In this document: positions 8,493 to 25,675 of the stretch, one piece after another
Position numbering within the stretch: the stretch's first letter is position 1
How the letters are laid out: each line of letters begins with the position of its first letter
Assembly: GCA_963834905.1 (NCBI GenBank)
Contig: CAWIDR010000023.1
Coordinates: 15,356-79,355, forward strand
Reading direction: 5' to 3'
DNA from: an uncultured Thermoleophilia bacterium
Lineage (GTDB): Bacteria > Actinomycetota > Thermoleophilia > UBA2241
Length of the DNA: 64,000 bases
The notes under the pieces: generated by a model
Databases searched by the model: none
What the model saw: only the letters and a program-made list of their open reading frames with translations
What the model was told of the DNA's origin: nothing
Position numbers and translations under genes: made by a program

Positions 8493-9723
8493 ATGAAGCA
8501 GATCACTGAAGCAGCGAGACAGATCGACGTCTGCGCCGAGGTCGACGTCCTTGTGTGCGCAGCGGCTCCGCGGCGTGGCCGCGCAGTGGCGGCAGCTCGC
8601 GGCGGCGCCGCGTCTCTGCTCGAGCGCTACGTTTACCTCGGCGGGCTCGCGACATTTTTATCATTTTCTTGATAACGTTATCAACGCGTATATTGTGATT
8701 ATCTTTATTGATTGATTTATGCGAATTGATCATTTGTTGACGATTTGTTTGACGTATTTATGTTTGATTTGTAACTTCTTAAGCATCATTCATGAGTATG
8801 TTTCTTGATCGCATTTGATGTTTTTTCACATTATGTGTGCATATATTTATTGAAGTTTTGACGTTGAATTTTTTTATTGTGTATAACAAGTCGTTGCATT
8901 CGATTTCGCGTGTTTGTTGTTGACGTACGTTTGACGTTGATGTGTGTTCATTTGTTGTGTTTTCGTTGATGAGAAGAGTACTTTTTATATGTTTATTTTT
9001 AATCTCGTTGTTGTGTATATCGCGATTTTGATCGTGTCGCTTGTTAACTTTTTTATTTTTGCGTTTTTATTGATGAGTTGTTTTTTATTGTTGAACTTGA
9101 GTTTTATCTCGATTTGCACTTTTGTTATTTCGTTTTTGTTGTTTTCGTTGTTGATTTCTTTTATCTTGGCGAGGTGAACCTCTGGCCGGGCAGCATGTTT
9201 GGTATCTACGGTCTCGACCCGCGTCAGCTCACCAAGGCGGAGATCGTCACCAGCGACCACGCGCTGAGACTGGTGGACTTCCTCAAACGGAAGGCGCCGG
9301 GATTCGAGCAGGCATGGCTGGAGTACACGGCCAGCCAGCTCGGCGTGCGCGAGACACGGCGGATCGTCGGCGGCTTCTCTCCGACGCTTCGCGAGGCGCT
9401 TTCAGGAGATGTGCGCAGACGTCATCGCCAAGCTATATGCTAAGCGGCGCATGCGCATCCCTTACGTGTCCCTGGTCCCGGAGGCCATCGACGGCCTCCT
9501 CGTCGCCGGCCGTTGTATGTCGGCGCAGCAGGACGCGATGGTCCATCTGCGTCTGATCCCCGTCTGCCTAGCGACGGGACAGGCCGCCGGCACGGCGGCA
9601 GCGATGGCGGCCGTCGTTCGACGTGGTCCCGAGTTATTTCTACGTCGCCGACCTGCAGGCGTACCTCATCAATCAGGGTGCAGATCTCGGCATCGAAGCG
9701 CGTGCCGACGCAAGTTTCGTCTG
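8493..9723 (+). CDS. FAD-dependent oxidoreductase (PF12831-like). Ends are intact but the internal region 8640-9180 is replaced by a T-rich block.
   Basis: The N-terminus MKQITEAARQIDVCAEVDVLVCAAAP...LLERYVYLGG resembles the dinucleotide-binding DVxVxGGGPAG...LLxERxxxLGG region with indels. The C-terminus VPEAIDGLLVAGRCMSAQQDAMVHLRLIPVCLATGQAAGTAAAMA...LQAYLINQGADLG is typical of this family. Gene length is about 410 aa, so the block overwrites rather than inserts. Confidence 0.5.
8640..9180. other. T-rich (about 50% T) low-GC block inside the FAD-oxidoreductase gene
   Basis: Composition differs grossly from the about 70% GC flanks. Its only ORF is a Phe/Leu/Ile-rich translation of the T-rich DNA. 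Confidence 0.8.
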
Positions 9724-9726
9724 ATT

Positions 9727-9748
9727 TTTTTTTTTTTTTTTTTTGTTT
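9727..9748. repeat. T22 homopolymer in a 76-bp AT-only spacer between convergent genes
   Basis: Read directly. The spacer 9724-9799 is nearly 100% A/T. Confidence 0.9.
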
Positions 9749-10971: not shown

Positions 10972-12367
<1,396 letters not shown>

Positions 12368-12401
12368 CCGCGCGCGGCGCCCAAGCGAAGGAGACGAGTC
12401 G

Positions 12402-13357
12402 ATGACGTACGATTCACTGCCGTTCAGCGGCATCGCGACCTTCTTCAAGGCGCCGCTGGTGACCACGCCGACGACGGCCGACGCCGACGTGGCCGTCGTC
12501 GGCATCGGCTGGGACGAGGGCACCACCAGCCGCTCCGGCGCCCGGATGGGGCCTCGCGCCCTGCGCGAGGCCTCCACCATGTACGCCTTCCAGCGTGACG
12601 CCGAGCCCTTCTGGGACGGCGAGGCCGGCGTGGAACTGCTCGGCGGCGTGCGCTGGGCGGACTGCGGCGACGTGGCCCTCGGCCCGATGTGGTCGCCCGA
12701 GCGCTACCACAACGCCGTGGTCGACAAGCTGCAGCCGATCATGAAGTCCGGCCTCTTCCCCGTCACGCTCGGCGGCGACCACTCGATCGGCTACCCGGTG
12801 CTCAAGGCGCTCTCCAGTCCCGCGGGGGCAAGCCCGTGCACCTGGTGCAGTTCGACACCCACATGGACTACTGGGACGAGGAGGGCGGTTCGCGCTTCTC
12901 GCACGCCAGCCCCATCATCCGCAGCCACGAGGCGGGCTTCCTCGCGAGCCTCACGCAGTACGGCATCCGCAGCCTGCACACCCCCGGCGACAACATCGCC
13001 CTGGCCAGGAGCCGCGGGGCGCACATCTTCTGGTGCCAGCAGGCGAAGGACATGCTCGTGGACGACCTCATCGAGCACCTGCCCAAGGGCGCCGACGTGT
13101 ACATCACCTTCGACATCGACGCGCTCGACCCGGCGATCGCGCCGGGCACCGGCACGCCCGAGCCCGGCGGCTTCAGCTACTACGAGGCCAAGGACATCCT
13201 GCTCGGCGTCTGCGACCGCTGCAACGTCGTGGGCATGGACCTCGTCGAGGTCGCGCCCCAGTACGACGGCCCCGGCCAGGTGACGGCGCTGCACGGCGCC
13301 CGCCTGATCCTCGACACGGTGGGAGCCGTCTTCCGCCGCCGCGCGGCGCTCGGCTGA
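12402..13357 (+). CDS. Ureohydrolase (arginase/agmatinase/guanidinobutyrase family), 1 frameshift near 12820
   Basis: TLGGDHSIGYPV, VQFDTHMDYWDE (DAHxD-type) and ITFDIDALDP (DxDxxDP) are the Mn-binding motifs of the arginase fold. Confidence 0.8.
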
Positions 13358-13512
13358 GCACGCGTGGTGCGCCGGGTCACCAAGGGCTCGGACCGCTGGC
13401 CGCAGTGTCCTGCCGACGCCAAGGGCGCTCACGCTGGACGCGGCGCGGCTGAACCGCCTCCGCTCCGGCGTCGAAGTACTCATCACTTCGGCGAGAGACG
13501 CCGATAGCGGCC

Positions 13513-15845
13513 GTGATGGCGGAGGCGGGCACACCTCTACGCGTCCGGCAGGCGGCGGACCTGCTCGGCGTCAGCCCGGCGACGGTGCGTCGCTGGGCCG
13601 ACAGCGGCCGCCTGGTCAGCCGGCGCACCAAGGACGGAGAGCGCCGCTTCCACCTCGACGACCTCAAGGCGAGCTCGGCACCGGCCGGCGGCCGTCCTCG
13701 CCATCTCTCCAGGCCGACGCGGAGCGGCGCTACCAGCTGCTCCTCGAGACGAGCGTCGAACTGGCGTCCTCGCTCGACCTCGACGAGGTGCTGCAATCGG
13801 CCGCACGCCGCCTCGGCTCCGCGCTCGACATCCCCGACTGTGACTTCTACCGGATCGAGGACGACAGGCTCGTGTGCGTGGCGTCGAGCACCAAGGGCCG
13901 CTTCGACGGCGTCTGGACCGGTCGCGAGTTCTCCCTGCGGGACTGGCACTCGGCGCGCCTGGCGATCGAGCAGCGCCGCGCGGTCGCCTTCGACAGCGTC
14001 GACGACCCGCGCCTGACGGCGGCGGAGCGCGACTCGGCGCTCGCCTACGGCCAGCGCAGCTTTCTCGTCCTCCCGCTCATCGCCCGCGACGAGGTGATCG
14101 GCACGATCGAGCTGCTCGACCACACCGAGCGCCGCTTCACGGAGGAGGAGATCGGGGTCGCAGAAGCCGTCGCCAAGCTCGTCGCCCTCGCCATCGAGCG
14201 GGCCAAGCTGCACGACGAGGTCAAGCGACTGCACGTCGCCAACCTGCGCGCCCTGAGCTCGGCGCTGAGCGCCAAGGACTACTACACGCTCGGCCACGCC
14301 AGCCGCGTGGCCGGCTACGCCGCGCTGCTGGGACGCGAGCTGGGGTGGAACGACGAGCGCCTGACCGAGCTGCAGAACGTCGCCTTCCTGCACGACATCG
14401 GCAAGATCGGCGTCTCGGACCGCGTGCTGCTCAAGGCCGGACCGCTCACCTCGGAGGAGTGGGAGCTCGTGCGCCAGCACCCCGGCATCAGCGCCGAGAT
14501 AGCGCGACCCCTCTTCCGCGACGAACTCGTGACCGGAGTGCGGCATCACCACGAGCACTTCGACGGCGCGGGCTACCCGGACGGCCTGGCCGGCGCGGAC
14601 ATCCCCGAGGTCGCGCGCCTGCTCTGTGTGGTGGACTGCTACGACGCGATGTCCAGCGAGCGGCCGTACCGGCGCGCGCTCAGCTACCGCCAGTGCCTGG
14701 CGGAACTGCGCCGGCTCGCCGGCACGCAGTTCGACCCGGACCTGGTCGCGGCGTTCCTCAAGGCCTTGCGACGCCTGCGGCGACGCCGCGCCGAGGTGGA
14801 CCGGCTCGCCGCGCGGGCAGCGGCGCGGATCGACCCCGCGGCCCACGTCCTCCTGCGCACGCGCGCCGACGAGGCGCGTCCGGAGTACGCGGAGATGGTG
14901 ACCGCGCTGCGCGAGTTCCGCGACCAGAACCCGCCGGTGCGCTTCATCACGAGCTTCGCGACGACCGAGGAGCGCTGCATCTCCGTGCTCGACACCGGCG
15001 AGGACGAGAGCGAGGTCTCGCACGTCGGCGACCAGTGGCTGGCGCAGGACGTGCTCGCCGCCGTGCTCGCCGGCGGCAGGAGCACCGCCAACGTGCTCAA
15101 CGCCGACGACTACGGCGTCTGGGTGACGGGCACGGCCCCGCTCTGCGCCGGCGACGGGACCGTGCTCGGGGCGGTCACGGTGGACGTGCCGGCGCTCGAA
15201 TGGGCGCCGTCCCTCCAGAGCGACCAGTCACACACCCTCGCGGCCATCCTCCGGGCGGCGACCATCCGCTTCAGCAGAGCCGAGGTCGAGGCGATCACCG
15301 ACGGCCTCACCGGCCTCTACAACCACCGCTACCTGCACGAACGCCTCGAGGAGGAACTCGACCGCGCCCGCCGCTACGACGACGACGTCAGCCTGCTGTT
15401 CATCGACTGCGACGAGTTCAAGCAGTTCAACGACGCGTACGGACACAAGCTCGGCGACGGGGCCCTGGCGCGCATCGCGCGCATCCTGGAGTCGTGCAGC
15501 CGGCGCGTCGACCTGGCGGCGCGCTACGGCGGCGAGGAGTTCGTGCTCGTGCTGGTCGGCACCGACGGCGCCGGCGCGCGGACGGTCGCGGAGCGCATCC
15601 GCGCGGAGGTCAAGACCACGGGCCTCGCCGGCGGCCAGCCCCTGACCGTCAGCATCGGCATCGCCTCGTATCCGCAGGACGCCGCCGGCAAGGACGAACT
15701 GCTCGACAAGGCCGACTGGGCGATGTACGCGGCCAAGTGTGGCGGCCGCGACCTCGTCCTGTCTTTCCGCGACGAGCTCGTCGCCCGGGATTGGGTGTCG
15801 CGGAGCGGCGGCCGCGCTCCGGCGCTGCCTCGCGACCACCGCTGA
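13513..15845 (+). CDS. Multidomain c-di-GMP signalling protein: MerR-type HTH + GAF + HD-GYP phosphodiesterase + GGDEF diguanylate cyclase, 1 frameshift near 13700
   Basis: HTH: LLGVSPATVRRWADSGRL. HD-GYP: HASRVAGYA...LHDIGKIGV...HHEHFDGAGYPDGL. GGDEF: LTGLYNHRYL...RYGGEEFVLVL. Confidence 0.75.
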
Positions 15846-15863
15846 GACTCGACGCGCGCGGCG

Positions 15864-15940
15864 CCGGCGTGACGCCGGAGAGGGCGGGCGGTCGGACTGA
15901 CCGTGGGGGATCCCGCCCGCCCCATCCGGCGTCACGCCGG
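15864..15940. terminator. Long GC hairpin (bidirectional terminator candidate) between convergent genes
   Basis: CCGGCGTGACGCCGGAGAGGGCGGGCGG...CCGCCCGCCCCATCCGGCGTCACGCCGG is a near-perfect inverted repeat. Confidence 0.45.
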
Positions 15941-15951
15941 ACCTGCGCAGC

Positions 15952-15981
15952 GGCCGGCCGGGCGGGGGAGTCCGGCCGGCC
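15952..15981. terminator. Second GC hairpin, GGCCGGCCGG-N10-CCGGCCGGCC
   Basis: Perfect 10-bp inverted repeat read in the sequence. Confidence 0.45.
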
Positions 15982-16005
15982 GCTTCCTTCATGCCGGCTC
16001 TGCGC

Positions 16006-17460
16006 TCATGCCGGCAGCAGCACGGTGAACACCGAGCCTTCGCCCTCGACGCTGGTCGCCTCGAGGCGGCCGCCGGCGCGCTCCACGAGGCGTTTCACGA
16101 TCGAGAGACCCAGGCCGTTGCCCTCGAGCTCGCGCGTCTCGGCACGCTTCTCGCGGAAGAACTCATCCCAGAGCCGCGCCAGGTTCTCCTCGCGGATGCC
16201 GATGCCGGTGTCGGCCACGTCGAGGCGCAGCCAGCCGTCCGCGACGGCGCCGCGCACGGTCACCGTGCCGGCGTCGCGGTTGTACTTGACCGCGTTGCCG
16301 ACGAGGTTGCTGAGCACGAGCTTCAGGTCGTCGGGACGGATGAGCGCCGGCGGCAGGCCGGCGGCGAGCTCGGTGACCACGGTCACCCCGCGCTGGGCGC
16401 CGCGCTCGCGAGCGAGCTCCACGACCTCGTCCAGGACGGGGGCGACCGGGACGAGCTCGGGCTCCTCGCCCTCCGGCGCCTGCTCGCTGCGCGCCAGCGT
16501 CAGCAGGTCGCGGATGAGCTGGGTCAGGTTGTCGATGCGGTGGTCGGCGCGGGCGACCATCGGGATGTAGGGGTCGAGGTCCTCGCCGAGGCTCTTGTCG
16601 GTCACGACCTCGAGCAGGCCCTTGATGGAGCCGAGCGGGCTCTTGAGCTCGTGCACCATGGTGCGGATGAACTTCTGCTTCTCCATGGCCAGGCGCCGCA
16701 CCTCGCTGATGTCGCTCAGCGTGAGGATGCGGCCGCGCGCTTCGCCGCCGTCGCCGCGGAAGGTGACGATGCTGGCCATCCAGGCCTGATCGCCGAGGTC
16801 GAGCTGACGGACGGTCCGGTCCTTGGCCGGCGCCGCCAGCTGCTCGCCCAGCGGCGCCAGGGCGCCGCCGCCGAGCAGTTCCCGCGCCGGCCGCATGAGC
16901 GCCTCGTCCTCGCCGAGCTCGAGCAGTTCGAGCATGGGCGGGTTGGCGAGCACCACGTCGCCGTCGCGGTTGACCACGAGGACGGCGTCGCGCAGGGAGC
17001 TCACCAGGGAGTGCGTCTGGGTCTTCTCCTCGGCGAGGGCGAGCAGGCTCGCCTCGTGCTCGGCGCGCAGGCGGTCCGCCTCCGTGCGCGCCTTCTTGTG
17101 GCGCAGCAGCGTCTCGATGACGCCCTCGAGGTCGTCGGGGCTGAACGGCTTGGGCAGGAAGAAGTCCACGCCCTGCCGCGTCGCGGCGATCGCCGTGTCG
17201 ATGTTGGCGTAGGCCGTGATCATGCACACCATGGCTTCGCAGCCGCGCTCCTTCATGGTCCGGAGCAGGCTGAGGCCGTCGGTGTCGGGCAGGCGGTAGT
17301 CGAGCAGGGCGACGTCGTAGTCGCGCTCGTCCAGCGCCGCCAGCGCCGCCGCGCCGTCGGCGGCCTCGGCGACGTCGTAGCCCTCCATCTGGAGGATCGT
17401 GCGGATGCCGCTGCGCACGCCGTACTCGTCGTCGACGATGAGGATGCTGCCCTCGGCCAT
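16006..17460 (-). CDS. Hybrid sensor histidine kinase: N-terminal receiver (REC) + PAS + HisKA + HATPase_c
   Basis: REC: ILIVDDEYGVR...ALLDYRLPDTDG...KPF. H-box: MVHELKSPLGSI. ATPase: LSNLVGNAVKY...DTGIGI...GNGLGLSIV. Confidence 0.85.
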   Translation of the reverse strand: MAEGSILIVDDEYGVRSGIRTILQMEGYDVAEAADGAAALAALDERDYDVALLDYRLPDTDGLSLLRTMKERGCEAMVCMITAYANIDTAIAATRQGVDFFLPKPFSPDDLEGVIETLLRHKKARTEADRLRAEHEASLLALAEEKTQTHSLVSSLRDAVLVVNRDGDVVLANPPMLELLELGEDEALMRPARELLGGGALAPLGEQLAAPAKDRTVRQLDLGDQAWMASIVTFRGDGGEARGRILTLSDISEVRRLAMEKQKFIRTMVHELKSPLGSIKGLLEVVTDKSLGEDLDPYIPMVARADHRIDNLTQLIRDLLTLARSEQAPEGEEPELVPVAPVLDEVVELARERGAQRGVTVVTELAAGLPPALIRPDDLKLVLSNLVGNAVKYNRDAGTVTVRGAVADGWLRLDVADTGIGIREENLARLWDEFFREKRAETRELEGNGLGLSIVKRLVERAGGRLEATSVEGEGSVFTVLLPA

Positions 17461-17485
17461 GGTGATCTCCTCTCCCCGCCCCTCG

Positions 17486-17911
17486 TCAGACCGCGGCCGG
17501 CTCGCCGGCGGAAGTCGCCACGGCGAGCTCCTCGATCACGGCGAGCACCTGCTTGCCGGTCACCGGCTTGTCCAGGAACCGGGCCAGCCGGGACCACTCG
17601 CGCAGCCCGCCGCTCTCGCCGTCGAACCGCGTGCCGGTCTCGGCGGCGACGCCGCTCAGCATGACGAGCGGGACATGGGCAAGCCGCTCGTCCTTGCCGA
17701 TCCGGTAGCCCAGACGGAACCCGTCGTCCACGTGCTCCATCATCAGGTCGAGGAAGATGATCGCCGGGGTCTCGCGCTCGAGCAGCGCCAGCGCCTCGTC
17801 GGGGGACTCGGCGGTGAGCACGCGGTAGCCGCGCGCCTCGAGGTAGACCTGCTTGCTCTCCAGGAAGTCCCGGTCGTCGTCGACGAACAGCACGGTGGTG
17901 GGGGTGGTCAT
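17486..17911 (-). CDS. Stand-alone CheY-like receiver domain protein
   Basis: TVLFVDDDRDFL...IIFLDLMMEHVDDGF...MLSG...KP. About 141 aa with no output domain. ATG overlaps the stop of the upstream gene (ATGA). Confidence 0.8.
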   Translation of the reverse strand: MTTPTTVLFVDDDRDFLESKQVYLEARGYRVLTAESPDEALALLERETPAIIFLDLMMEHVDDGFRLGYRIGKDERLAHVPLVMLSGVAAETGTRFDGESGGLREWSRLARFLDKPVTGKQVLAVIEELAVATSAGEPAAV

Positions 17912-19969
17912 GGCGTCGCTCCCTTGTCGTCGATCAGCGCGGCCTGCCCGCCGGCGTGGGTGCTGGGAAGCTCCACGTGGAAGGTGGTGCCGCGATCCGT
18001 CTCGGTGTCGAACCAGATCGTGCCGTTGTGCATCTTGACGATGCCGTAGCTGATGGGCAGGCCGAGGCCGGTGCCCTTGCCGATGCTCTTGGTGGTGAAG
18101 AAGGGCTGGAAGACCTTGTCGCGGGCGCTCCGCGGGATGCCGGCGCCCTCGTCGCTCACGGCGATGTGGACGCGGCCGCCGTCCTCGACCTCGTGGGCGC
18201 TCACGCGCACGGTGCCGTCCCGGCCCTCCATCGCCTCGACCCCGTTCTTGACCAGGTTCACGAGCACCTGGGTCATCTGGTCGCGGTCGAGGTCGGCGCG
18301 GAGGCCGGGATCCACGTCGACCACGAGGTCGACGGTGTGCCCGGCCGGCTGCGCCGTCGCGGCGGCGGAGTCGACCGCCTGCTGCACGACGTCGTGCACG
18401 GAGGCGTTCTCGACGTGCACGCGGCTCTGCCGCGCGAAGTCGAGCAGGTTGCCGACGATCTTCTTGCAGCGCTCGCTCTCCTCGGCGACGAGGTTGAGGT
18501 CGTGGTCCAGGTCGTCGCGGTCCTTGAGCTTCTTCCCGAGGATGTGCGTGTACAGGAGGATCGTGCTGAGCGGATTGTTGAGCTCGTGGGCGACGCCGGC
18601 GGCCATCTGGCCCATGCTGGCCAGCTTCTCCGTGTTGATGATGTGGCGGTGCACGTCGCGCATCTCGCTCCACGGCACGTTGAGCTCGGCGCAGACCCGC
18701 TCGGCCTGGTCGATCATGAACGGCAGGCACATGGCGTCCTCGGCCATGCCGGAGTAGACGGCGACCGCCTTGGCGCGGCAGGTCGGGTAGCCGCAGGCGC
18801 CGCAGTTCAGTTCGTCCTCGGGGAAGAACTTGTTGGTCCTCCCGAGGATGTCGCGGATCTCGTCCTCCGTCGGCTCGGGCAGCCGCTGGTCGTCGGGCGT
18901 GTACGCCCGGCTGAGGACGAGGCCGGGGAAGTTCTCGGCGAGGCGGTCGTCCTCGGCCTCGCCGGCGGCGCTCACGGCCGCGGCCTCCGCCTCCCGGCGA
19001 CAGTCGGCCACGTACTCGCCGACGCGGCGCTTGCGCAGGAGGCCGGGCTCGGAGGAGCTGATGCCCGGCCCGCAGTAACAGCCACGGCACATGAGGGCCT
19101 CCACGAGCAGCGTCTGGCCCGTGTCGGCCTCGCTCAGGCTGTCCAGCACCTCGATGGTCTCGTCGTGGCCGCTGACCACGAGCACGTCCGGGTCGAGCAT
19201 GCCGCGGTCCATGCCGGCGGCGTCGAGCAGGCCGCCGGGCAGCGGGAACACCCGCGCCCGCCCGGCGGCCGGCGCGTCCCACTCCGCCTCCGCCGCCTTC
19301 GCGGGGTCGACGCCCCGCGCCGCCAGCAGCCGGTGGGCCTCCTGCAGCGTGAGCACCTCGTCGATCACCGGCGGCAGCTGCGGGTCGCGGGCCTCCGCCT
19401 TCTTGGCCACGCACGGGCCGATGAAGACGCAGCGCACCTCGTCGCCGTAGAGCTCCTTCACCGCCAGGGCGGTGGCGATCATCGGCGACACGATCGGCAC
19501 GAGGCGATCCACCATCTCCGGGTGGTACTTGCGCACGTACTCGGCGACGGCGGGGCACGCGGTCGCGATGTGCACGCCGGTCGGGTTCGCCTCGAGGTGC
19601 TCCGCGTAGGCGCGGCTCACGAGGTCGGCGCCCTGGGCGACCTCCACGACGTGGTCGAACCCGGCCGCCTTGAAGGCGCCGACGACCTGCCCGGCGGGCA
19701 CGTCGAAGCCCGCCGGGAACGACGGCGCCAGCAGGGCGGCCACCGGGGCGTCCTCCTCGAGCATCCAGGACGCCTGCTCGAGCCCGCTCAGGTACGCCTT
19801 GGCGTTCTGGGAGCAGACCAGCGTGCAGTTGCCGCAGGCGATGCAGCGCTCGTCGACCACGAACGCCTGGCCGTCCTCGATGCGGATCGCCTGCGCCGGG
19901 ACAGTCGCGCACGCAGGTGTAGCACCTGCGGCAGTTCTGCTTGATCGTCGTGATGATCGTGCCGCTCAT
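17908..19969 (-). CDS. Sensory [FeFe]-hydrogenase-like protein fused to a histidine kinase (HydS-type H-domain + Cx2Cx4Cx16C cluster + HisKA + HATPase_c), 1 frameshift near 19880
   Basis: N-terminal 2x[4Fe-4S] ferredoxin: CRRCYTCVRDCP, CIACGNCTLVC. H-domain motifs: ATACPAVAEY (L1 variant TACP), FIGPCVAKKAEA (L2), EALMCRGCYCGPG (L3 variant). Then CGACGYPTCRAKAVAVYSGMAEDAMC (Cx2Cx4Cx16C). HK: AHELNNPLS, LVNLVKNGVEA...DEGAGI...GTGLGLPISY. Confidence 0.8.
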
Positions 19970-19980
19970 CCGGGCTCCAG

Positions 19981-21702
19981 TCAGACCGCCGCGACCCTGT
20001 CGGGGCGGCGGTCGGTGTAGGTGCGGTGCAGCAGGCGGTGGGAGACCTCGCCCAGGGGGCGACCGAGGAGCTCCTCGTAGAGCGCCTGCACATCGGCGTT
20101 CTCGTGGGAGCGCCGGGTGCGGGAGCGCCGGTCCACTTCGTAGAGGCGCTCCAGCCGTTCCTGGACCGCCTGCGCATCGGTGTCGTAGGGCTGCCCGCCG
20201 CCGCCGATGCAGCCGCCGGGGCAGCTCATCACCTCGACGAAGTGCATGCCGGCCTCGGGATCGAGCAGGCCGTCCACGGACTCCTTGACGCGCCCGAGGC
20301 CGTTGACGACGGCCAGGTTGAGGCGGACGCCGGCGGCGGTGACGGTGAAGCGGCGCACGCCTTCGGCGCCGCGGGCCTCAGCCACCTTGGGCCCGCCCTC
20401 CAGCTCCTGGCCGGCGACGAGCAGGTACGCCGTGCGCACGGCCGCCTCCATGACGCCGCCGCTGCCGGCGAACAGCCGGCCGGCGCCGGTCGCCTCGGCG
20501 AACGGCTCGTCCAGCGGCGCCTGCTCGGTGAAGCGCGCGAACTCGACCCCGAAGCGGCCCCACAGGTGCTCGAGCTCGCGCGTGGTGAGCACGTAGTCGA
20601 CGTCGCTCTGGTCCTGCGCCTCGAACTTCTTGGCCGTGCACGGCATGAGCGAGACGACCACGAGGCGCTTGCCCGCGAGGTCCGCGTGCTTCGGGTAGAT
20701 CTCGCTGATCAGCGCGCCGGCCATCTGCTGCGGGCTCTTGCAGGTGGAGAGGTGCGGGATCAGGTCGGGCCGGTGCGTCTCGACGAAGTTCACCCAGGCC
20801 GGGGAGCAGCTGGTGAACATCGGCAGCACGCCGCCGTTCTGGATGCGGTCGAGCAGCTCGGAGCCCTCTTCCATGATGGTCAGGTCGGCGGCGAAGCCGG
20901 TGTCGAACACGGCGTCGAAGCCGATGCGCTTGAGCGCCGCCGCCAGCCGCTCGAGCATCACGCGGACGCCCTCGCTCTTGCTGTGGCCCTCGAGCAGGGT
21001 CGCCGGCACTGCCGGCGCCACCTGCGCGACCACCACGGCGTCGGGGTCGGCCAGGGCCCTGACGACGTCGTCCACCTGGTCGCGCTCCACGATCGCGCCC
21101 GTGGGGCACACGCGCGCGCACTGGCCGCAGTACACGCACTCGCTCACGTTGAGGCCGATGGCGAAGCCGGGCGCCACCTTCGTCTTGAACCCGCGCCCGG
21201 TGAAGTCGATGGCGCCGATGCCCTGCACGTCGTGGCAGATGGTCACGCAGCGGCCGCAGAGGACGCACTTGTTGGGGTCGCGCCACAGCGCCGGGGAGCT
21301 GATGTCCACCGGGTGCTGCTTGACGGCGCCGACGTAGCGGCGCTGCCGCACGCCGAGGTCGCCGGCCAGCGTGGCCAGCTCGCAGTCGCCGCCGCGCACG
21401 CAGGAGAGGCAGTCCTGCGGATGGCTCGCGATGAGCAGTTCCATGATCGCGCGCCGCGCCTTGAGCACCCGCGGCGTGTGCGTGTGCACGGCCATGCCCT
21501 CGGCCGCCTCGAGCGTGCAGCTGGTGAGCAGCCGCGGGTCGCCCTCGACCTCCACCACGCAGAGGCGGCAGGAAGCGGCCGGGCTCGGAGCCCAGTCGAG
21601 GGAGCAGAGGTGCGGGATCTCGATGCCGGCGCGGCGGGCGGCCAGGAGCACGGTCTCCCCGCGGGTCGCCTCGATCTCTTTTCCGTTGATGGTGAGCTTC
21701 AT
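19981..21702 (-). CDS. hydA: [FeFe]-hydrogenase catalytic subunit HydA (M3-type: 2Fe-2S + His-ligated 4Fe-4S + 2x4Fe-4S + H-cluster domain)
   Basis: MKLTINGKEI...CSLDWAPSPAASCRLCVVEV, HPQDCLSCVRGGDCE, CVLCGRCVTIC...CVYCGQCARVCP. H-cluster motifs: MFTSCSPAW, SLMPCTAKKFEA, VEVMSCPGGCIGGGGQP. Confidence 0.85.
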   Translation of the reverse strand: MKLTINGKEIEATRGETVLLAARRAGIEIPHLCSLDWAPSPAASCRLCVVEVEGDPRLLTSCTLEAAEGMAVHTHTPRVLKARRAIMELLIASHPQDCLSCVRGGDCELATLAGDLGVRQRRYVGAVKQHPVDISSPALWRDPNKCVLCGRCVTICHDVQGIGAIDFTGRGFKTKVAPGFAIGLNVSECVYCGQCARVCPTGAIVERDQVDDVVRALADPDAVVVAQVAPAVPATLLEGHSKSEGVRVMLERLAAALKRIGFDAVFDTGFAADLTIMEEGSELLDRIQNGGVLPMFTSCSPAWVNFVETHRPDLIPHLSTCKSPQQMAGALISEIYPKHADLAGKRLVVVSLMPCTAKKFEAQDQSDVDYVLTTRELEHLWGRFGVEFARFTEQAPLDEPFAEATGAGRLFAGSGGVMEAAVRTAYLLVAGQELEGGPKVAEARGAEGVRRFTVTAAGVRLNLAVVNGLGRVKESVDGLLDPEAGMHFVEVMSCPGGCIGGGGQPYDTDAQAVQERLERLYEVDRRSRTRRSHENADVQALYEELLGRPLGEVSHRLLHRTYTDRRPDRVAAV

Positions 21703-21713
21703 GGTCGTTCCTC

Positions 21714-23709
21714 TCAGGCGACGGCCAGGACGGCCTGCTTGGGGCAGGAGTCGGCGCAGGCGCCGCAGCCGGTGCAGCGGTCGACGATGATGGAGTGGGC
21801 GAACTTGCGCTTGCCGAGGATCGCGCCGCTCGGGCAGTTCTTGGCGCAGAGGGCGCAGCCGGTGCAGAGCTCGGGGTCGATGTCGAAGACGCGGAGCCCC
21901 GTGCAGGCGCCGGCCGGGCAGGCGCTCTCCATGACGTGGGCCTCGTATTCGTCGCGGAAGAACCGCAGGGTGCTGAGCACCGGGTTCGCCGCGGACTGGC
22001 CGAGGCCGCAGAGAGAAGTGTCCTTGACGATCTCGGCGAGCTCCTCGAGGTGAAGGATGCCGCGGAACCGCTCGAGGCGGCGCAGGTCGTCGCCGACCGG
22101 CCGCTCGGTGAGCTCGGCCAGGATCTCGTACATGCGCGTCGTGCCTTCGCGGCAGGGGGTGCACTTGCCGCAGCTCTCGTTGCGGATGAACTCCATGAAG
22201 AACTTGGCCACGTCGACCATGCAGGTGCGCTCGTCCATGACGACCATGCCGCCGGAGCCCATCATCGCGCCGAGCTCCTGCAGCGTGCCGTAGTCGGTCG
22301 CCACGTCGAGGTGCGCGTCGGGGATGCAGCCGCCGCTGGGGCCGCCGATCTGCACGGCCTTGATGTGGTGGCCGGCCGGGGCGCCGCCGCCGATGTCGTA
22401 GACGACCTCGCGCAGCGGGATGCCCACCGGGACCTCCACGAGGCCGGTGTTCCGCACGCGGCCGGAGAGGGCGAAGACCTTGGTGCCGGCCGCGTCGCCG
22501 TAGCCCAGATCGCGGAACCACTCGGCGCCCTTGTCGATGCACCGCCGGCACGTTGGCCAGCGTCTCGACGTTGTTGAGCACGGTCGGGCAGCCGTGGAGG
22601 CCGGAGACCGCGGGATACGGCGGGCGGGGACGGGGCATGCCGCGCCCGCCCTCGATGCTGGCCAGGATCGCCGTCTCCTCGCCGCAGACGAAGGCGCCGG
22701 CGCCCATCTTGATGGTGATGTCGAAGTCGACGAGCGTGCCGAGGATGTTGCTGCCGAGCAGCCCCGCGGCGCGGCACTGGCGGATCGCCTCGCTGAGGCG
22801 CTCGATCGCCAGCGGGTACTCGGCGCGGCAGTAGACGTAGCCCTTCGTCGCGCCGATCGCGTAGGCGGCGATGAGCATGCCCTCGACGATGCGGAACGGG
22901 TCGCTCTCGAGCACGGCGCGGTCCATGAACGCGCCGGGGTCGCCCTCGTCGGCGTTGCAGATGAGGTACTTCTGGCTGCGCGCCTGGTCGTGGGCGACCT
23001 TCCACTTCCGGCCGGTCGGGAAGCCGGCGCCGCCGCGGCCGCGCAGGCCGGAGGCGATGACCTCGTCGCAGACCTCGGCCGGGGTCATCGTCGCCAGCGC
23101 CCTGGCGGCGGCGCGGAAGCCGCCGGCGGCCAGCGCCGCGTCCAGGCTGGCCGGGTCGATGACGCCGCAGTTGGCGAGCACGACCTTGGTCTGCCGGGCG
23201 AAGAACGGCGTCTCGCCGATCGGCTTGACGCCGCGGTACAGGTCGTCGGGGTCGTCATAGCGGCCGAGCAGGAAGCGGTTGTGCAGCTGCCCGTCACCGA
23301 ACACGGTCTGGAGGAACTCGTCGATCGTCTCCGGGCCCAGGTCGCAGTAGCTGAGCCGCACGCCGTCGGCGGTCATCAGGTCGACGAAGACCTCGCGCTG
23401 GCAGTAGCCCACGCAGCCGGTCTCGACGATCGGCACGCGCAGGCCGCGCCGCTCGAAGTAGGCGTTCATCTTCTCGATGACGGTGAGCGCGCCGTTGGCG
23501 CGCCCGCAGGTGCCGGCGCCGACGGAGAGGATCATCCCGTCGCCGCCGCGGCGGGCGCGCTCGAGGCGCGCCGCCCGCTCCTGCCGGCAGGCGTCGTCGT
23601 CGTGGCAGATCGGTCCGTGGTCCACGCAGGCGATCGCGTCGGCGCAGGGGGTCGCCGCGGTGTGCCGGCAGCGCGTGCAGCACGGGGTCATGAGCTGGCT
23701 GTGGTTCAT
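21714..23709 (-). CDS. hydB: NuoF-like NAD(P)H-binding flavoprotein subunit of the hydrogenase (HydB/HndC), with N-terminal thioredoxin-like [2Fe-2S] domain and C-terminal 2x[4Fe-4S], 1 indel near 22530
   Basis: [73 protein letters not shown]...[12 protein letters not shown]. Confidence 0.85.
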
Positions 23710-23778
23710 GCTCGTCTCGATTCTCTGTGGTCCATGGCTCTGGTCACGCCGTCCCTCTCGGCCCCTCCGGGCCGGCCC

Positions 23779-24270
23779 TCAGGCCGCCGCTTCGTCGCTC
23801 GCGGCCTTGACGTCCACCTCGTCCAGGAGCGCGTCGAGCTTCTCCGTCGTGAGGTGGCCGTAGAACTCGCCGTCCAGCTTGACCACCGGAGCGATCGAGC
23901 AGGCGCCGAGGCACGCGACGCTGATGACGGTGAAGCGGCCGTCGGCCGAGTTGCCGTCGTCGCGCAGCTTCAGCCGCCGCTTCAGGTGCTGGGCGAGCGC
24001 GAGACTCTGCTTGACGTGGCACGCCGTGCCGCGGCAGAGCTCGATCACGTGCTCGCCCAGCGGGGCGAAGCGGAACTGGTTGTAGAACGTGGCGACGCCG
24101 TAGACGCGGCTGACCGGCGTCTCCAGAGCCTCGGCCACCCGGACCATCGCGTCCGTGGAGATGAACCCCTCGGCCGCCTGGATCTCCTGCAGCAGCGGGA
24201 TCATCTGCTCGCGCGTGAGCTGTTCCCGGCGTCCGGCGATGATGGATTCGGCGGTGGTCACGACGGTCAC
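23779..24270 (-). CDS. hydC: NuoE-like [2Fe-2S] subunit of the hydrogenase (HydC/HndA)
   Basis: LCRGTACHVKQS...VACLGACSIAPVVKLDGEFYG is the thioredoxin-like 2Fe-2S motif pair. GTG start overlaps the upstream stop. Confidence 0.8.
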   Translation of the reverse strand: MTVVTTAESIIAGRREQLTREQMIPLLQEIQAAEGFISTDAMVRVAEALETPVSRVYGVATFYNQFRFAPLGEHVIELCRGTACHVKQSLALAQHLKRRLKLRDDGNSADGRFTVISVACLGACSIAPVVKLDGEFYGHLTTEKLDALLDEVDVKAASDEAAA

Positions 24271-24686
24271 GCGCCCTTCGCGACGGCCTCGTCCGCGGCC
24301 AGCAGCTCGGCGATCGCGGCGGCGAGGTCGGCGAGCTTGACCGGCTTCTCGAAGAACTTGGCGGCCGGCCATTCCCGGTACATCATCGGCTCGAAGACGT
24401 GCGTCTTGGTCTCGAGTTCCTTGGTGAAGCCGCTCATGATGATGATCGGGATGCGCTCGGTCTCGGGCTCGTCGCGCAGCTTGAAGGCCACGTTGAAGCC
24501 GTCGGTGTCGTAATCCATCATGATGTCGAGCACCACGAGGTCGGGGCGCTGCACGGCGAGCCGCTCGCGCGCCTCGATGCCGCTGTGGGCGGTGTCCACG
24601 TCGTACCCGCGGGCCTCCAGGAACGCCTTGACGCTGGCGACCAGGTCGCGGTCGTCGTCCACCATCAGGATGCGCTTGGCCTTCAT
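24267..24686 (-). CDS. Stand-alone CheY-like receiver domain protein, first gene of the hydrogenase operon
   Basis: MKAKRILMVDDDRDLV...LVVLDIMMDYDTDGF...IIMSG...KP. A strong RBS GGAGGAG precedes the ATG at 24686. Confidence 0.8.
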   Translation of the reverse strand: MKAKRILMVDDDRDLVASVKAFLEARGYDVDTAHSGIEARERLAVQRPDLVVLDIMMDYDTDGFNVAFKLRDEPETERIPIIIMSGFTKELETKTHVFEPMMYREWPAAKFFEKPVKLADLAAAIAELLAADEAVAKGA

Positions 24687-24755
24687 GACTCTCCTCCTCT
24701 GTTCCGCTGCGCACTCGGCGTCCGCCGGTACGAGCCGTTTGGTTACTGTCTTCAC

Positions 24756-24773
24756 AGTGAAATCGTTCACAGT
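24756..24773. promoter_or_regulatory. Rex operator-like palindrome between rex and the hydrogenase operon
   Basis: cAGTGAAATCGTTCACAg fits TGTGA-N6-TCACA with one half-site mismatch. It lies 70-90 nt upstream of the receiver ATG. Confidence 0.45.
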
Positions 24774-24790
24774 AGCCTCGAAAAAAACCC

Positions 24791-25529
24791 TCACGCCGTC
24801 AGCCCCTCGGCCTCGTCCGAGCTCAGCTCTTCCGGCTCGCCCGGCTCCGTCCTCGCCAGGAACGAGAGCATCTCCAGCTTGGACGAGATGTCCGTGTTCT
24901 CGACGAAGCACCCTGCCGGCGCCTTGACGCGCTTGGGGACGAAGTTGAGGACCGCGTGGACGCCGGAGGCGCTGACGCGGTCGACCAGCGTCTGCAGCCC
25001 TTCGGGCCGGGACGCGAGGATCGCCATGTGGACGTCGAACTCGCGCAGCACCGTCTCCAGGCGATCGACGTGGTAGCAGCGCCGGCCGGCGAAGACACGG
25101 CCGACCTTCTCGCTGTCGACGTCGAAGGCCACGGCGATGTGGAAGCCGCGCTCCTCGAAGCCACGGTAGGAGAGGAGGGCCCTCCCCAGGTCGCCCACAC
25201 CGAACAGCGCGACCGCCTGGGTCTCGTCGGTGCCCATGATGCGGCTGATCGTGCGGCTCATCTGGTAGACGTTGTAGCCGCGAGAGATGTTGCCGAAGGT
25301 GCCGAAGCTGGCGAGGTCGCGACGGAGCTGCGCGGGAGTCACTCCGACCAGCTCGGCGAGCGTCGTGGGAGTGGATGTTCTCGACGCCGTCGCGGTCGAG
25401 CTCCTCGAGCACCTTGCGGTAGACGCTGAGCCGCTCGACCGTCTGCAGAGAGACCCGCTTGGCGGGCCGGTCCTGCGGCGTCAGGGCCTCAGGGCCGTTC
25501 TGTTCGCTGGTGCTCAAGGTTCCTCCCAC
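24791..25529 (-). CDS. rex: Redox-sensing transcriptional repressor Rex (winged-helix + NADH-binding Rossmann), 1 frameshift near 25340, start uncertain
   Basis: N-terminus: AKRVSLQTVERLSVYRKVLEEL...GVENIHSH. C-terminus: FGTFGNISRGYNVYQ...VALFGVGDLGRALL...ILASRPEGLQ...VHAVLNFVP. Confidence 0.75.
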
Positions 25530-25540
25530 GGTTCCTATGG

Positions 25541-25558
25541 CTGTGATTCTATTCACAG
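25541..25558. promoter_or_regulatory. Rex operator-like palindrome upstream of rex (possible autoregulation)
   Basis: cTGTGATTCTATTCACAg equals TGTGA-N6-TCACA. Both half-sites are perfect. Confidence 0.5.
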
Positions 25559-25654
25559 TAGCACCGAGCTGTCAAGCGCCCGTCGGCCTCCCGCTCCGAC
25601 ACGGCCGGTCCCCCGGCCAGGCGGGCGGCGCTGCGGCGATGCTGACGAGGGGAG

Positions 25655-25675
25655 GGCCGGCCGTGACGGCCGGCC
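25655..25675 (-). terminator. GC hairpin downstream of the homocysteine methyltransferase gene
   Basis: GGCCGGCCG-TGA-CGGCCGGCC is a perfect 9-bp stem. No U-tract. Confidence 0.4.

Follow-up and report, generated by a model that had tools for sequence, protein, structure and literature searches.

Within a window of 64,000 nucleotides from the genome assembly of an uncultured Thermoleophilia bacterium (GCA_963834905.1, contig CAWIDR010000023.1, positions 15,356 to 79,355), a gene at 13516-15845 encodes a protein of 777 amino acids (aa) once a frame break at approximately 13687 is repaired. Coordinates are those of the window throughout, and the gene, its domains and its predicted promoter all lie on the forward (+) strand. 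The product is predicted to be a cytoplasmic, five-module protein for the turnover of cyclic di-GMP (c-di-GMP), a reading to which a probability of roughly 0.7 can be attached. From the N-terminus it consists of a BldC/excisionase-like helix-turn-helix (HTH), a flexible linker, a GAF domain, an HD-GYP phosphodiesterase domain, a Cache/PAS-like sensor and a GGDEF diguanylate cyclase domain with an I-site. A receiver-PAS-histidine kinase gene at 16006-17460 faces it tail-to-tail, and beyond that gene lie a single receiver and then an Fe-S/hydrogenase-like histidine kinase.

As the sequence stands, the coding region is divided between two overlapping open reading frames (ORFs), one for the HTH (13513-14016, frame 1) and one for the enzyme (13788-15845, frame 0), and the 777-aa protein is obtained by joining the two frames at approximately 13689. 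The HTH motif, LLGVSPATVRRWADSGRL, is read in frame 1 from 13513, after which this ORF continues into out-of-frame sequence. Both HHHEHFDGAGYP, from the HD-GYP domain, and the RYGGEEF of the GGDEF domain are read in frame 0, which terminates at the TGA codon at 15843-15845. In this second frame the nearest stop on the 5' side is at 13305, and no ATG, GTG or TTG occurs before 13788; 5' of that position the frame already encodes AERRYQLLLETSVELASSLDLDEVLQ, the beginning of the GAF domain. At the other end of the gene, the ATG at 13516 is conserved in relatives and the GTG at 13513 is not. Pfam searches with the joined protein match HTH_17, GAF, HD_5 and GGDEF, and more than 120 relatives encode the same arrangement in a single uninterrupted ORF. 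This bears out the first-pass annotation, made from the sequence without database searches, in which these four domains had been assigned to one polypeptide; the Cache/PAS-like fifth domain and the promoter had been overlooked.

The HTH (13516-13671, frame 1) matches the excisionase/BldC-like family HTH_17 of the MerR superfamily at residues 9-53 (PF12728, E = 1.5e-10, 41.6 bits against a cut-off of 27). Scores just above the cut-off are obtained with the MerR family PF00376 (30.2 bits against 28.2) and with the NCBIfam model TIGR01764, 'excise' (29.9 against 28.8); the MerR_1 profile is matched only at positions 2-43 of 69, the rest being uncovered. The closest solved relatives are the structures of Streptomyces BldC (6amk and 6ama, E = 5e-6 over 45 residues). 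However, BldC stands alone as a protein of ~70 aa, whereas the HTH is here fused to a 720-aa enzyme, and its 36.7 bits fall far short of the cut-off of 77 for the BldC subfamily model NF033787. Neither the coiled coil nor the C-terminal effector-binding region of MerR proteins was found after the HTH in Pfam, NCBIfam, the PDB match or an AlphaFold model, and a disordered linker is present instead. The original label of 'MerR-type' is therefore apt only in a loose sense: the domain is an HTH_17/excisionase/BldC-like module lacking the parts that accompany the HTH in MerR itself. All statements on residue conservation here and below refer to an alignment of 41 sequences with identities as low as 64%, in which T24, R26, R27 and W28 of the HTH are invariant. 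The Ala/Pro/Gly-rich linker that follows (13672-13706) contains the frame break; residues 56-67 have a predicted local distance difference test (pLDDT) score below 50 in the AlphaFold model, and DNA alignments show that the linker differs in length among relatives.

The GAF sensor (13707-14195, frame 0) is matched at residues 89-228 (PF01590, E = 3.2e-14, 54 bits against a cut-off of 22.4), and the HD-GYP phosphodiesterase domain (14250-14744) is matched by HD_5 at residues 247-411 (PF13487, E = 7.6e-33, 114.1 bits against 27.2). Together they align with the entire 369-aa chain of PmGH, the c-di-GMP phosphodiesterase of Persephonella marina (4mcw, E = 1.7e-43), which shares the GAF and HD-GYP module and the HD, HHE...GYP and D motifs but lacks the HTH, the second sensor and the GGDEF domain. 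The second-best PDB match to this part of the protein is the cGAMP-specific V-cGAP3 (5z7c, E = 1.2e-39), and PA4781 (4r8z) also aligns. The residues H262, H294-D295, H323, H346-H347-E348, G354-Y355-P356 and D375 are invariant, such that the HD and HHExxDGxxGYP motifs are indeed intact, as they had initially appeared to be. Of the eight metal ligands of PmGH, all of which are required for the trinuclear PmGH type, seven are present. The missing one is a Glu four residues before the first His of PmGH (DPETQNH), the third-metal ligand E185 in the PmGH numbering; it is replaced by Tyr258 here (DYYTLGH), a residue invariant in the family, and V-cGAP3 likewise has a Tyr (SPYTAGH). This substitution suggests that the metal site is likely to be binuclear rather than trinuclear.

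Between the two catalytic domains, no Pfam family matched residues ~420-590 even at E <= 10. When modelled with AlphaFold, both the full-length protein (mean pLDDT 76) and this middle stretch by itself (pLDDT 83) show a confident alpha/beta domain at residues ~440-586 (14829-15269), with a pLDDT of ~83-90. When compared with the PDB using Foldseek, this domain resembles a formate-binding sCache domain (8py0, the best match, E = 1.5e-4) and the CitA, WalK and dCache sensors, with TM scores of 0.45-0.55. On these structural grounds it is predicted to be a second, Cache/PAS-like sensor. It precedes the GGDEF diguanylate cyclase domain (15291-15752, residues 594-747), which is matched by both PF00990 (E = 3.3e-46, 157.4 bits against a cut-off of 23.8) and TIGR00254 (E = 4e-48, 163.3 against 37.4). 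The RYGGEEF motif occupies residues 671-677, with GGEEF at 673-677. D632, N640, D641, D649, R671-Y672-G673-G674, E676, K742 and R746 are invariant, while E675 is conserved in at least 90% of the sequences. An RxxD I-site, R664-R-V-D667, lies five residues before GGEEF, and both R664 and D667 are invariant. The earlier view of this domain as an intact cyclase is thus upheld by its active-site motif and its metal- and substrate-binding residues across the 41 homologues, and the alignment does not reveal the degeneration of catalytic residues that had been raised as a possible objection.

The homologues detected in a protein search number more than 120, are uninterrupted, share 63-94% identity and are ~774 aa long; nearly all have the identical precomputed Pfam set. 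P0008, P0015, P0078 and P0095 lack the HTH, and look like truncated or frame-broken calls. A scan of genomes, one per species, gave at least 577 matching stretches, from which 77 loci were kept. All but one of these are labelled Thermoleophilia, Actinomycetes or Actinomycetota metagenome-assembled genomes (MAGs), the remaining locus (L024) being labelled Alphaproteobacteria. Several genomes contain multiple copies, with four in the MAG bog_752, and longer paralogues of ~1000 aa are also present. Among the matches listed, this is hence a large, uncharacterised, multi-copy family almost confined to MAGs labelled Thermoleophilia or Actinomycetota. A cluster look-up of the family gave no name from NCBI but one from JGI: 'diguanylate cyclase (GGDEF)-like protein/excisionase family DNA binding protein'.

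The protein is built wholly of known modules, and its family is already abundant in databases. Hybrids of HD-GYP and GGDEF domains accounted for 74 of 1034 HD-GYP proteins (7%) in a census from 2010, nearly all of them retaining an intact GGDEF site (PMC2952852). These proteins, which include Rxyl1018 of Rubrobacter xylanophilus, resemble the present one in having both c-di-GMP domains in one chain, an intact GGDEF domain and sensor partners, but no DNA-binding domain is reported for them, and none has been characterised with the order HTH-GAF-HD-GYP-Cache-like-GGDEF. A literature search found no paper on an HD-GYP/GGDEF hybrid with a DNA-binding domain, nor on the present combination. Whether the architecture is uncommon, as had been proposed, depends on where one looks: it is so in the literature, but in its own lineage it belongs to a large family with multiple copies per genome.

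Comparison with the closest relative, L001, which has 95.4% nucleotide identity over window positions 12330-25608, shows the frame break to consist of two extra bases at 13687, equivalent to the loss of one. This is not an isolated lesion. At least five genes within 13 kb, this one included, are broken by indels of 1-2 nt despite retaining ~90% aa identity on both flanks: an agmatinase gene has a 1-nt deletion at 12814, seen against three references, and relative to the intact ORFs of L002 there are breaks in the Fe-S kinase at ~19899, in a NuoF-like gene at ~22530-22613 and in a Rex-like gene at ~25361. The contig also includes a pure poly(A) run of 921 nt (1944-2864) and, directly after it, ~1 kb of G/T/A-rich sequence poor in C (2865-~4000), as well as a T-rich low-complexity stretch at ~8680-9250 and a run of 20 T at 9725-9744. 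All of these look like long-read assembly artefacts, and are hallmarks of a poor long-read consensus. In comparisons with four relatives the dN/dS ratio is low in both halves, at 0.10-0.49 in the HTH part and 0.15-0.28 in the remainder, and hence neither shows relaxed constraint. The position of the break in a linker of variable length, the other broken genes, the low-complexity sequence and the low dN/dS together make an assembly indel the most likely explanation, as had been suspected of the junction near 13700. The window derives from an error-prone assembly, and its frame junctions should not be taken as biology.

The alternative is a genuine frameshift, which would leave either a pseudogene or a split locus, composed of a small HTH protein that ends out of frame (13513-14016) and an N-terminally truncated GAF-HD-GYP-GGDEF protein starting from the GTG at 13788. 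Some of the relatives could be cited in its favour, as the four proteins named above lack an HTH and the orthologue in L028 has a 1-nt deletion of its own, at a different site. Nevertheless, a genuine frameshift is improbable. Against it stand the density of indels in neighbouring, otherwise well-conserved genes, the assembly junk and the constraint on either side of the break, and a protein starting at 13788 would lack the first helices of the GAF domain, which are encoded 5' of this first possible start codon. There is also no in-frame stop or clean gene boundary at 13690-13790, where the end of a separate small HTH gene had been envisaged; such a gene was rejected since the first stop in frame 1 is at 14014-14016 and 13788 is the earliest start in the enzyme frame. 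Programmed -1 frameshifting was likewise rejected, as no slippery heptamer is present at 13665-13700 and the relatives are all in frame.

Damage of this type extends to other sequences and other parts of the window, and its occurrence in relatives is a further pointer to an assembly indel. The kinase genes of L001 are fragmented, L028 carries the deletion in the HTH-GAF-HD-GYP-GGDEF gene mentioned above, and the homologue P0007 contains an internal out-of-frame patch. Within the window, indel sites are also found at ~11000-11300 and at 12353, an aminotransferase gene is probably broken too, and the true N-terminus of the Fe-S/hydrogenase-like histidine kinase, MSGTIITTIKQNCRRCYTC, lies in another frame.

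A predicted promoter of the WhiG/sigma-28 type, located by regular expression, lies directly upstream of the gene (13479-13507, +). It comprises a -35 element, CTCA (13479-13482), a spacer of 17 nt and a -10 element, GCCGATAG (13500-13507), and the conserved ATG at 13516 follows 8 nt downstream of the -10 element here and ~7 nt downstream in relatives. The stretch CTCA-N17-GCCGATAG is conserved in L001, L002, L003 and L028. Almost every member of the family has a motif of this kind before the gene; in the more distant ones it is TGGCAGAG-yTGGTCAAGrAT…(G)CCGATA followed ~7 nt later by ATG or GTG, and it is kept though their neighbouring genes are unrelated. In 24 of these distant loci, each of ~22 kb, TCAAG-N14-18-CCGATA is found exactly once per locus, directly 5' of the gene, with a single extra hit aside. 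Only TCA...GCCGATA is common to the clade of the window and the distant clade; the part 5' of the -35 element differs between them. The extra copy of TCAAG-N-CCGATA, at L053 3158-3183 (+), precedes a GAF-domain signalling paralogue that has the GAF signature 'PDCD(I/V)YR'.

The published consensus sequences for WhiG are T(A/C)AA-N16-GCCGATAA for WhiG2 and CTCA-N16-17-GCCGAACT for WhiG1 (PMC12871210, a 2026 preprint). The window motif conforms in both sequence and spacing to the form looked for, T(A/C)AA-N16 or CTCA-N16-17 and then GCCGA(TAA), at no more than 200 bp from the start codon. In the same regulon analysis, the predicted WhiG targets most widespread in Actinomycetota are genes for diguanylate cyclases and phosphodiesterases, which number 307 in eight families; Thermoleophilia and the present protein family are not mentioned in it (PMC12871210). 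Cultured Thermoleophilia encode WhiG together with a single-motif c-di-GMP-binding RsiG (PMC8325347), and in Actinomycetota WhiG is sequestered by RsiG-(c-di-GMP) (PMC8325347, PMC12871210). The likeness of the locus to this regulon consists of the consensus match and the type of gene that follows it, and suggests that a WhiG-type promoter drives the genes of the family, a dependence that here is a prediction. The start codon lies at a short, fixed distance and no Shine-Dalgarno sequence precedes it, which suggests in turn that the mRNA is leaderless.

The upstream motif might instead be an operator through which the HTH regulates its own gene, or a coding N-terminal extension (MAELVKNR...). 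An operator would fit with the conservation in the distant group of ~10 nt 5' of the -35 element (TGGCAGAGCTGG) and with an inverted repeat, CGAAGT-N7-ACTTCG, that overlaps the -35 element in the clade of the window, while an extension is what some gene callers predict when they translate the motif (P0019, P0020, P0047). The extension was rejected, as the motif stands anywhere from 6 to 8 nt from the start codon, which breaks the frame, and the variation is not at wobble positions. As for an operator, the HTH recognition helix is invariant, yet the sequence 5' of the -35 element differs between the two clades; moreover, the motif agrees with the WhiG consensus in sequence and spacing. Both are accordingly considered unlikely as replacements for a WhiG-type promoter, although an operator may overlap such a promoter. 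The inverted repeat, a possible operator, is located at 13470-13488 and is conserved in L001, L002, L003 and L028. Further upstream, the intergenic region of the window contains a 35-nt insertion (13404-13438) that is specific to it in comparison with L001 and L028.

Sigma-28-like motifs (TAAAGTT…N…GCCGAT) were also observed at L038 8222, L040 7688, L042 184, L047 7696, L052 7107 and L055 7146 (+), where they stand 2-3 kb 5' of the matched part of the ~1000-aa GAF-HD-GYP-GGDEF paralogues. As these motifs precede the longer paralogues, WhiG-type control of c-di-GMP enzymes may be general in Thermoleophilia.

Several considerations weigh against the reading of this locus as a gene for a bifunctional c-di-GMP enzyme behind a WhiG-type promoter. 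The break is present in the sequence as given, and a recent true frameshift is possible on one assembly. The WhiG motif in its relaxed form (GCCGA only) is frequent by chance, with 176 hits in 2.9 Mb of G+C-rich DNA; the relaxed regular expression was therefore dropped as sole evidence, being too unspecific in such DNA, and the case for the promoter is built on the stricter GCCGATA and on positional conservation. Replacement of the third-metal Glu of PmGH by Tyr, as in V-cGAP3, means that the substrate of the HD-GYP domain is not certain. Finally, many hybrid c-di-GMP proteins have no more than one active domain in spite of intact motifs (PMC6205966).

The last two points would both be accommodated by a one-way enzyme, with a single active catalytic domain and the other acting as regulator or receptor, or by an HD-GYP domain that acts on pGpG or 3'3'-cGAMP, V-cGAP3 being the second-best structural match. 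This has to be set against the invariance of the canonical motifs of both domains throughout the alignment, and against the retention of an intact GGDEF site by nearly all hybrids in the 2010 census (PMC2952852). Such an enzyme consequently seems a possibility of some substance but a doubtful one, and the protein is better viewed as predicted to be capable of both synthesising and degrading c-di-GMP.

From the order of the modules we infer how such a bifunctional protein might operate. A separate sensor stands before each catalytic domain, and hence the GAF domain would gate the HD-GYP domain, the Cache-like domain would gate the GGDEF domain, and ligand inputs would set the net direction, to make or to break c-di-GMP. 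The I-site would cap synthesis. By binding DNA, the HTH could tether the enzyme there to supply or drain c-di-GMP locally, or could make it a 'trigger enzyme' that also regulates transcription. E. coli PdeL, in which a LuxR-type HTH is fused to an EAL phosphodiesterase, is a 'trigger' enzyme of this kind; to our knowledge, no other DNA-binding enzyme of c-di-GMP metabolism has been worked out. PdeL provides a model for coupling the level of the messenger to transcription, but has a LuxR HTH where HTH_17 is found here and an EAL domain in place of HD-GYP, lacks a cyclase and the GAF and Cache sensors, and shares no homology with the present protein beyond the concept. The gene itself would be transcribed as a leaderless mRNA from the WhiG promoter, and with RsiG-(c-di-GMP) holding WhiG, a feedback loop could connect the c-di-GMP level to the expression of the enzyme.

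It is only tentatively proposed that Thermoleophilia as a whole possess a set of DNA-bound, bifunctional c-di-GMP 'trigger' enzymes within a WhiG feedback loop. If this is correct, sensor inputs would set the balance of synthesis and degradation, c-di-GMP would arm RsiG, RsiG would sequester WhiG, and enzyme expression would shift as a result; through the HTH there would in addition be direct output to transcription, or local signalling at particular loci. Make-and-break c-di-GMP enzymes with a DNA-binding domain have hardly been studied, and the protein would be the first hybrid of HD-GYP and GGDEF domains to have a DNA-binding function; it would also place a WhiG circuit with feedback among the deepest-branching classes of actinobacteria. 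Should the HTH bind DNA and the promoter be functional, the result would be a compact circuit in which small-molecule sensing is joined to c-di-GMP turnover, to a sigma factor under c-di-GMP control and to transcription, in Thermoleophilia, a basal, mostly uncultured actinobacterial class.

The first-pass annotation had placed the gene tail-to-tail with the sensor-kinase genes and separated from them by two GC hairpins, and both features are present. The hairpins, identified from sequence and RNA folding and not assigned to a strand, are at 15856-15948, with arms of 36 nt (15856-15891/15913-15948), and at 15949-15984, with perfect arms of 13 nt (15949-15961/15972-15984). The folding energy of the region is -119.8 kcal/mol (z = -5.96). 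A terminator scan did not call a canonical T-tail terminator at the hairpins, which nevertheless probably represent a bidirectional terminator region. Scans for sigma-70 promoters and canonical terminators returned nothing relevant, and searches of the window for Rfam families and tRNAs gave no matches.

From this arrangement it had also been suggested that the enzyme might be coupled to the neighbouring hydrogenase-like/redox phosphorelay, such that an H2 or redox signal would be passed to c-di-GMP and thence to transcription. The tail-to-tail adjacency is retained in L001, L002, L003 and L029, but among the relatives it is found only in these four, the closest loci. L028, the locus of an 88%-identical orthologue, lacks the entire 9.8-kb block corresponding to window positions 15868-25668; its order is agmatinase, a different 3.5-kb insert, the orthologue, 0.7 kb of unique sequence and then the equivalent of the window from 25669 onward. 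The block is thus an insertion or deletion between close relatives. At none of 21 examined loci of the family with 61-72% identity were the kinases of the block found within 6-10 kb, and no neighbour is conserved across the examined loci, the commonest being another GAF signalling paralogue. Pfam detects no receiver domain in the joined 777-aa protein, and since the kinase genes run towards this gene with strong hairpins in between, the two are not co-transcribed. With the block absent from L028 and from all of the distant loci examined, and with no receiver domain in the protein, the link from H2 or redox signals to c-di-GMP is not supported, and coupling of this kind is regarded as very improbable.

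The block itself, which the window shares with L001, L002, L003 and L029, contains the receiver-PAS kinase, the single receiver, the Fe-S/hydrogenase-like kinase, an [FeFe]-hydrogenase-like gene, the NuoF-like gene and a Rex-like regulator. In L028 it is replaced by positions 12354-13056 of that locus, which is otherwise collinear with the window.

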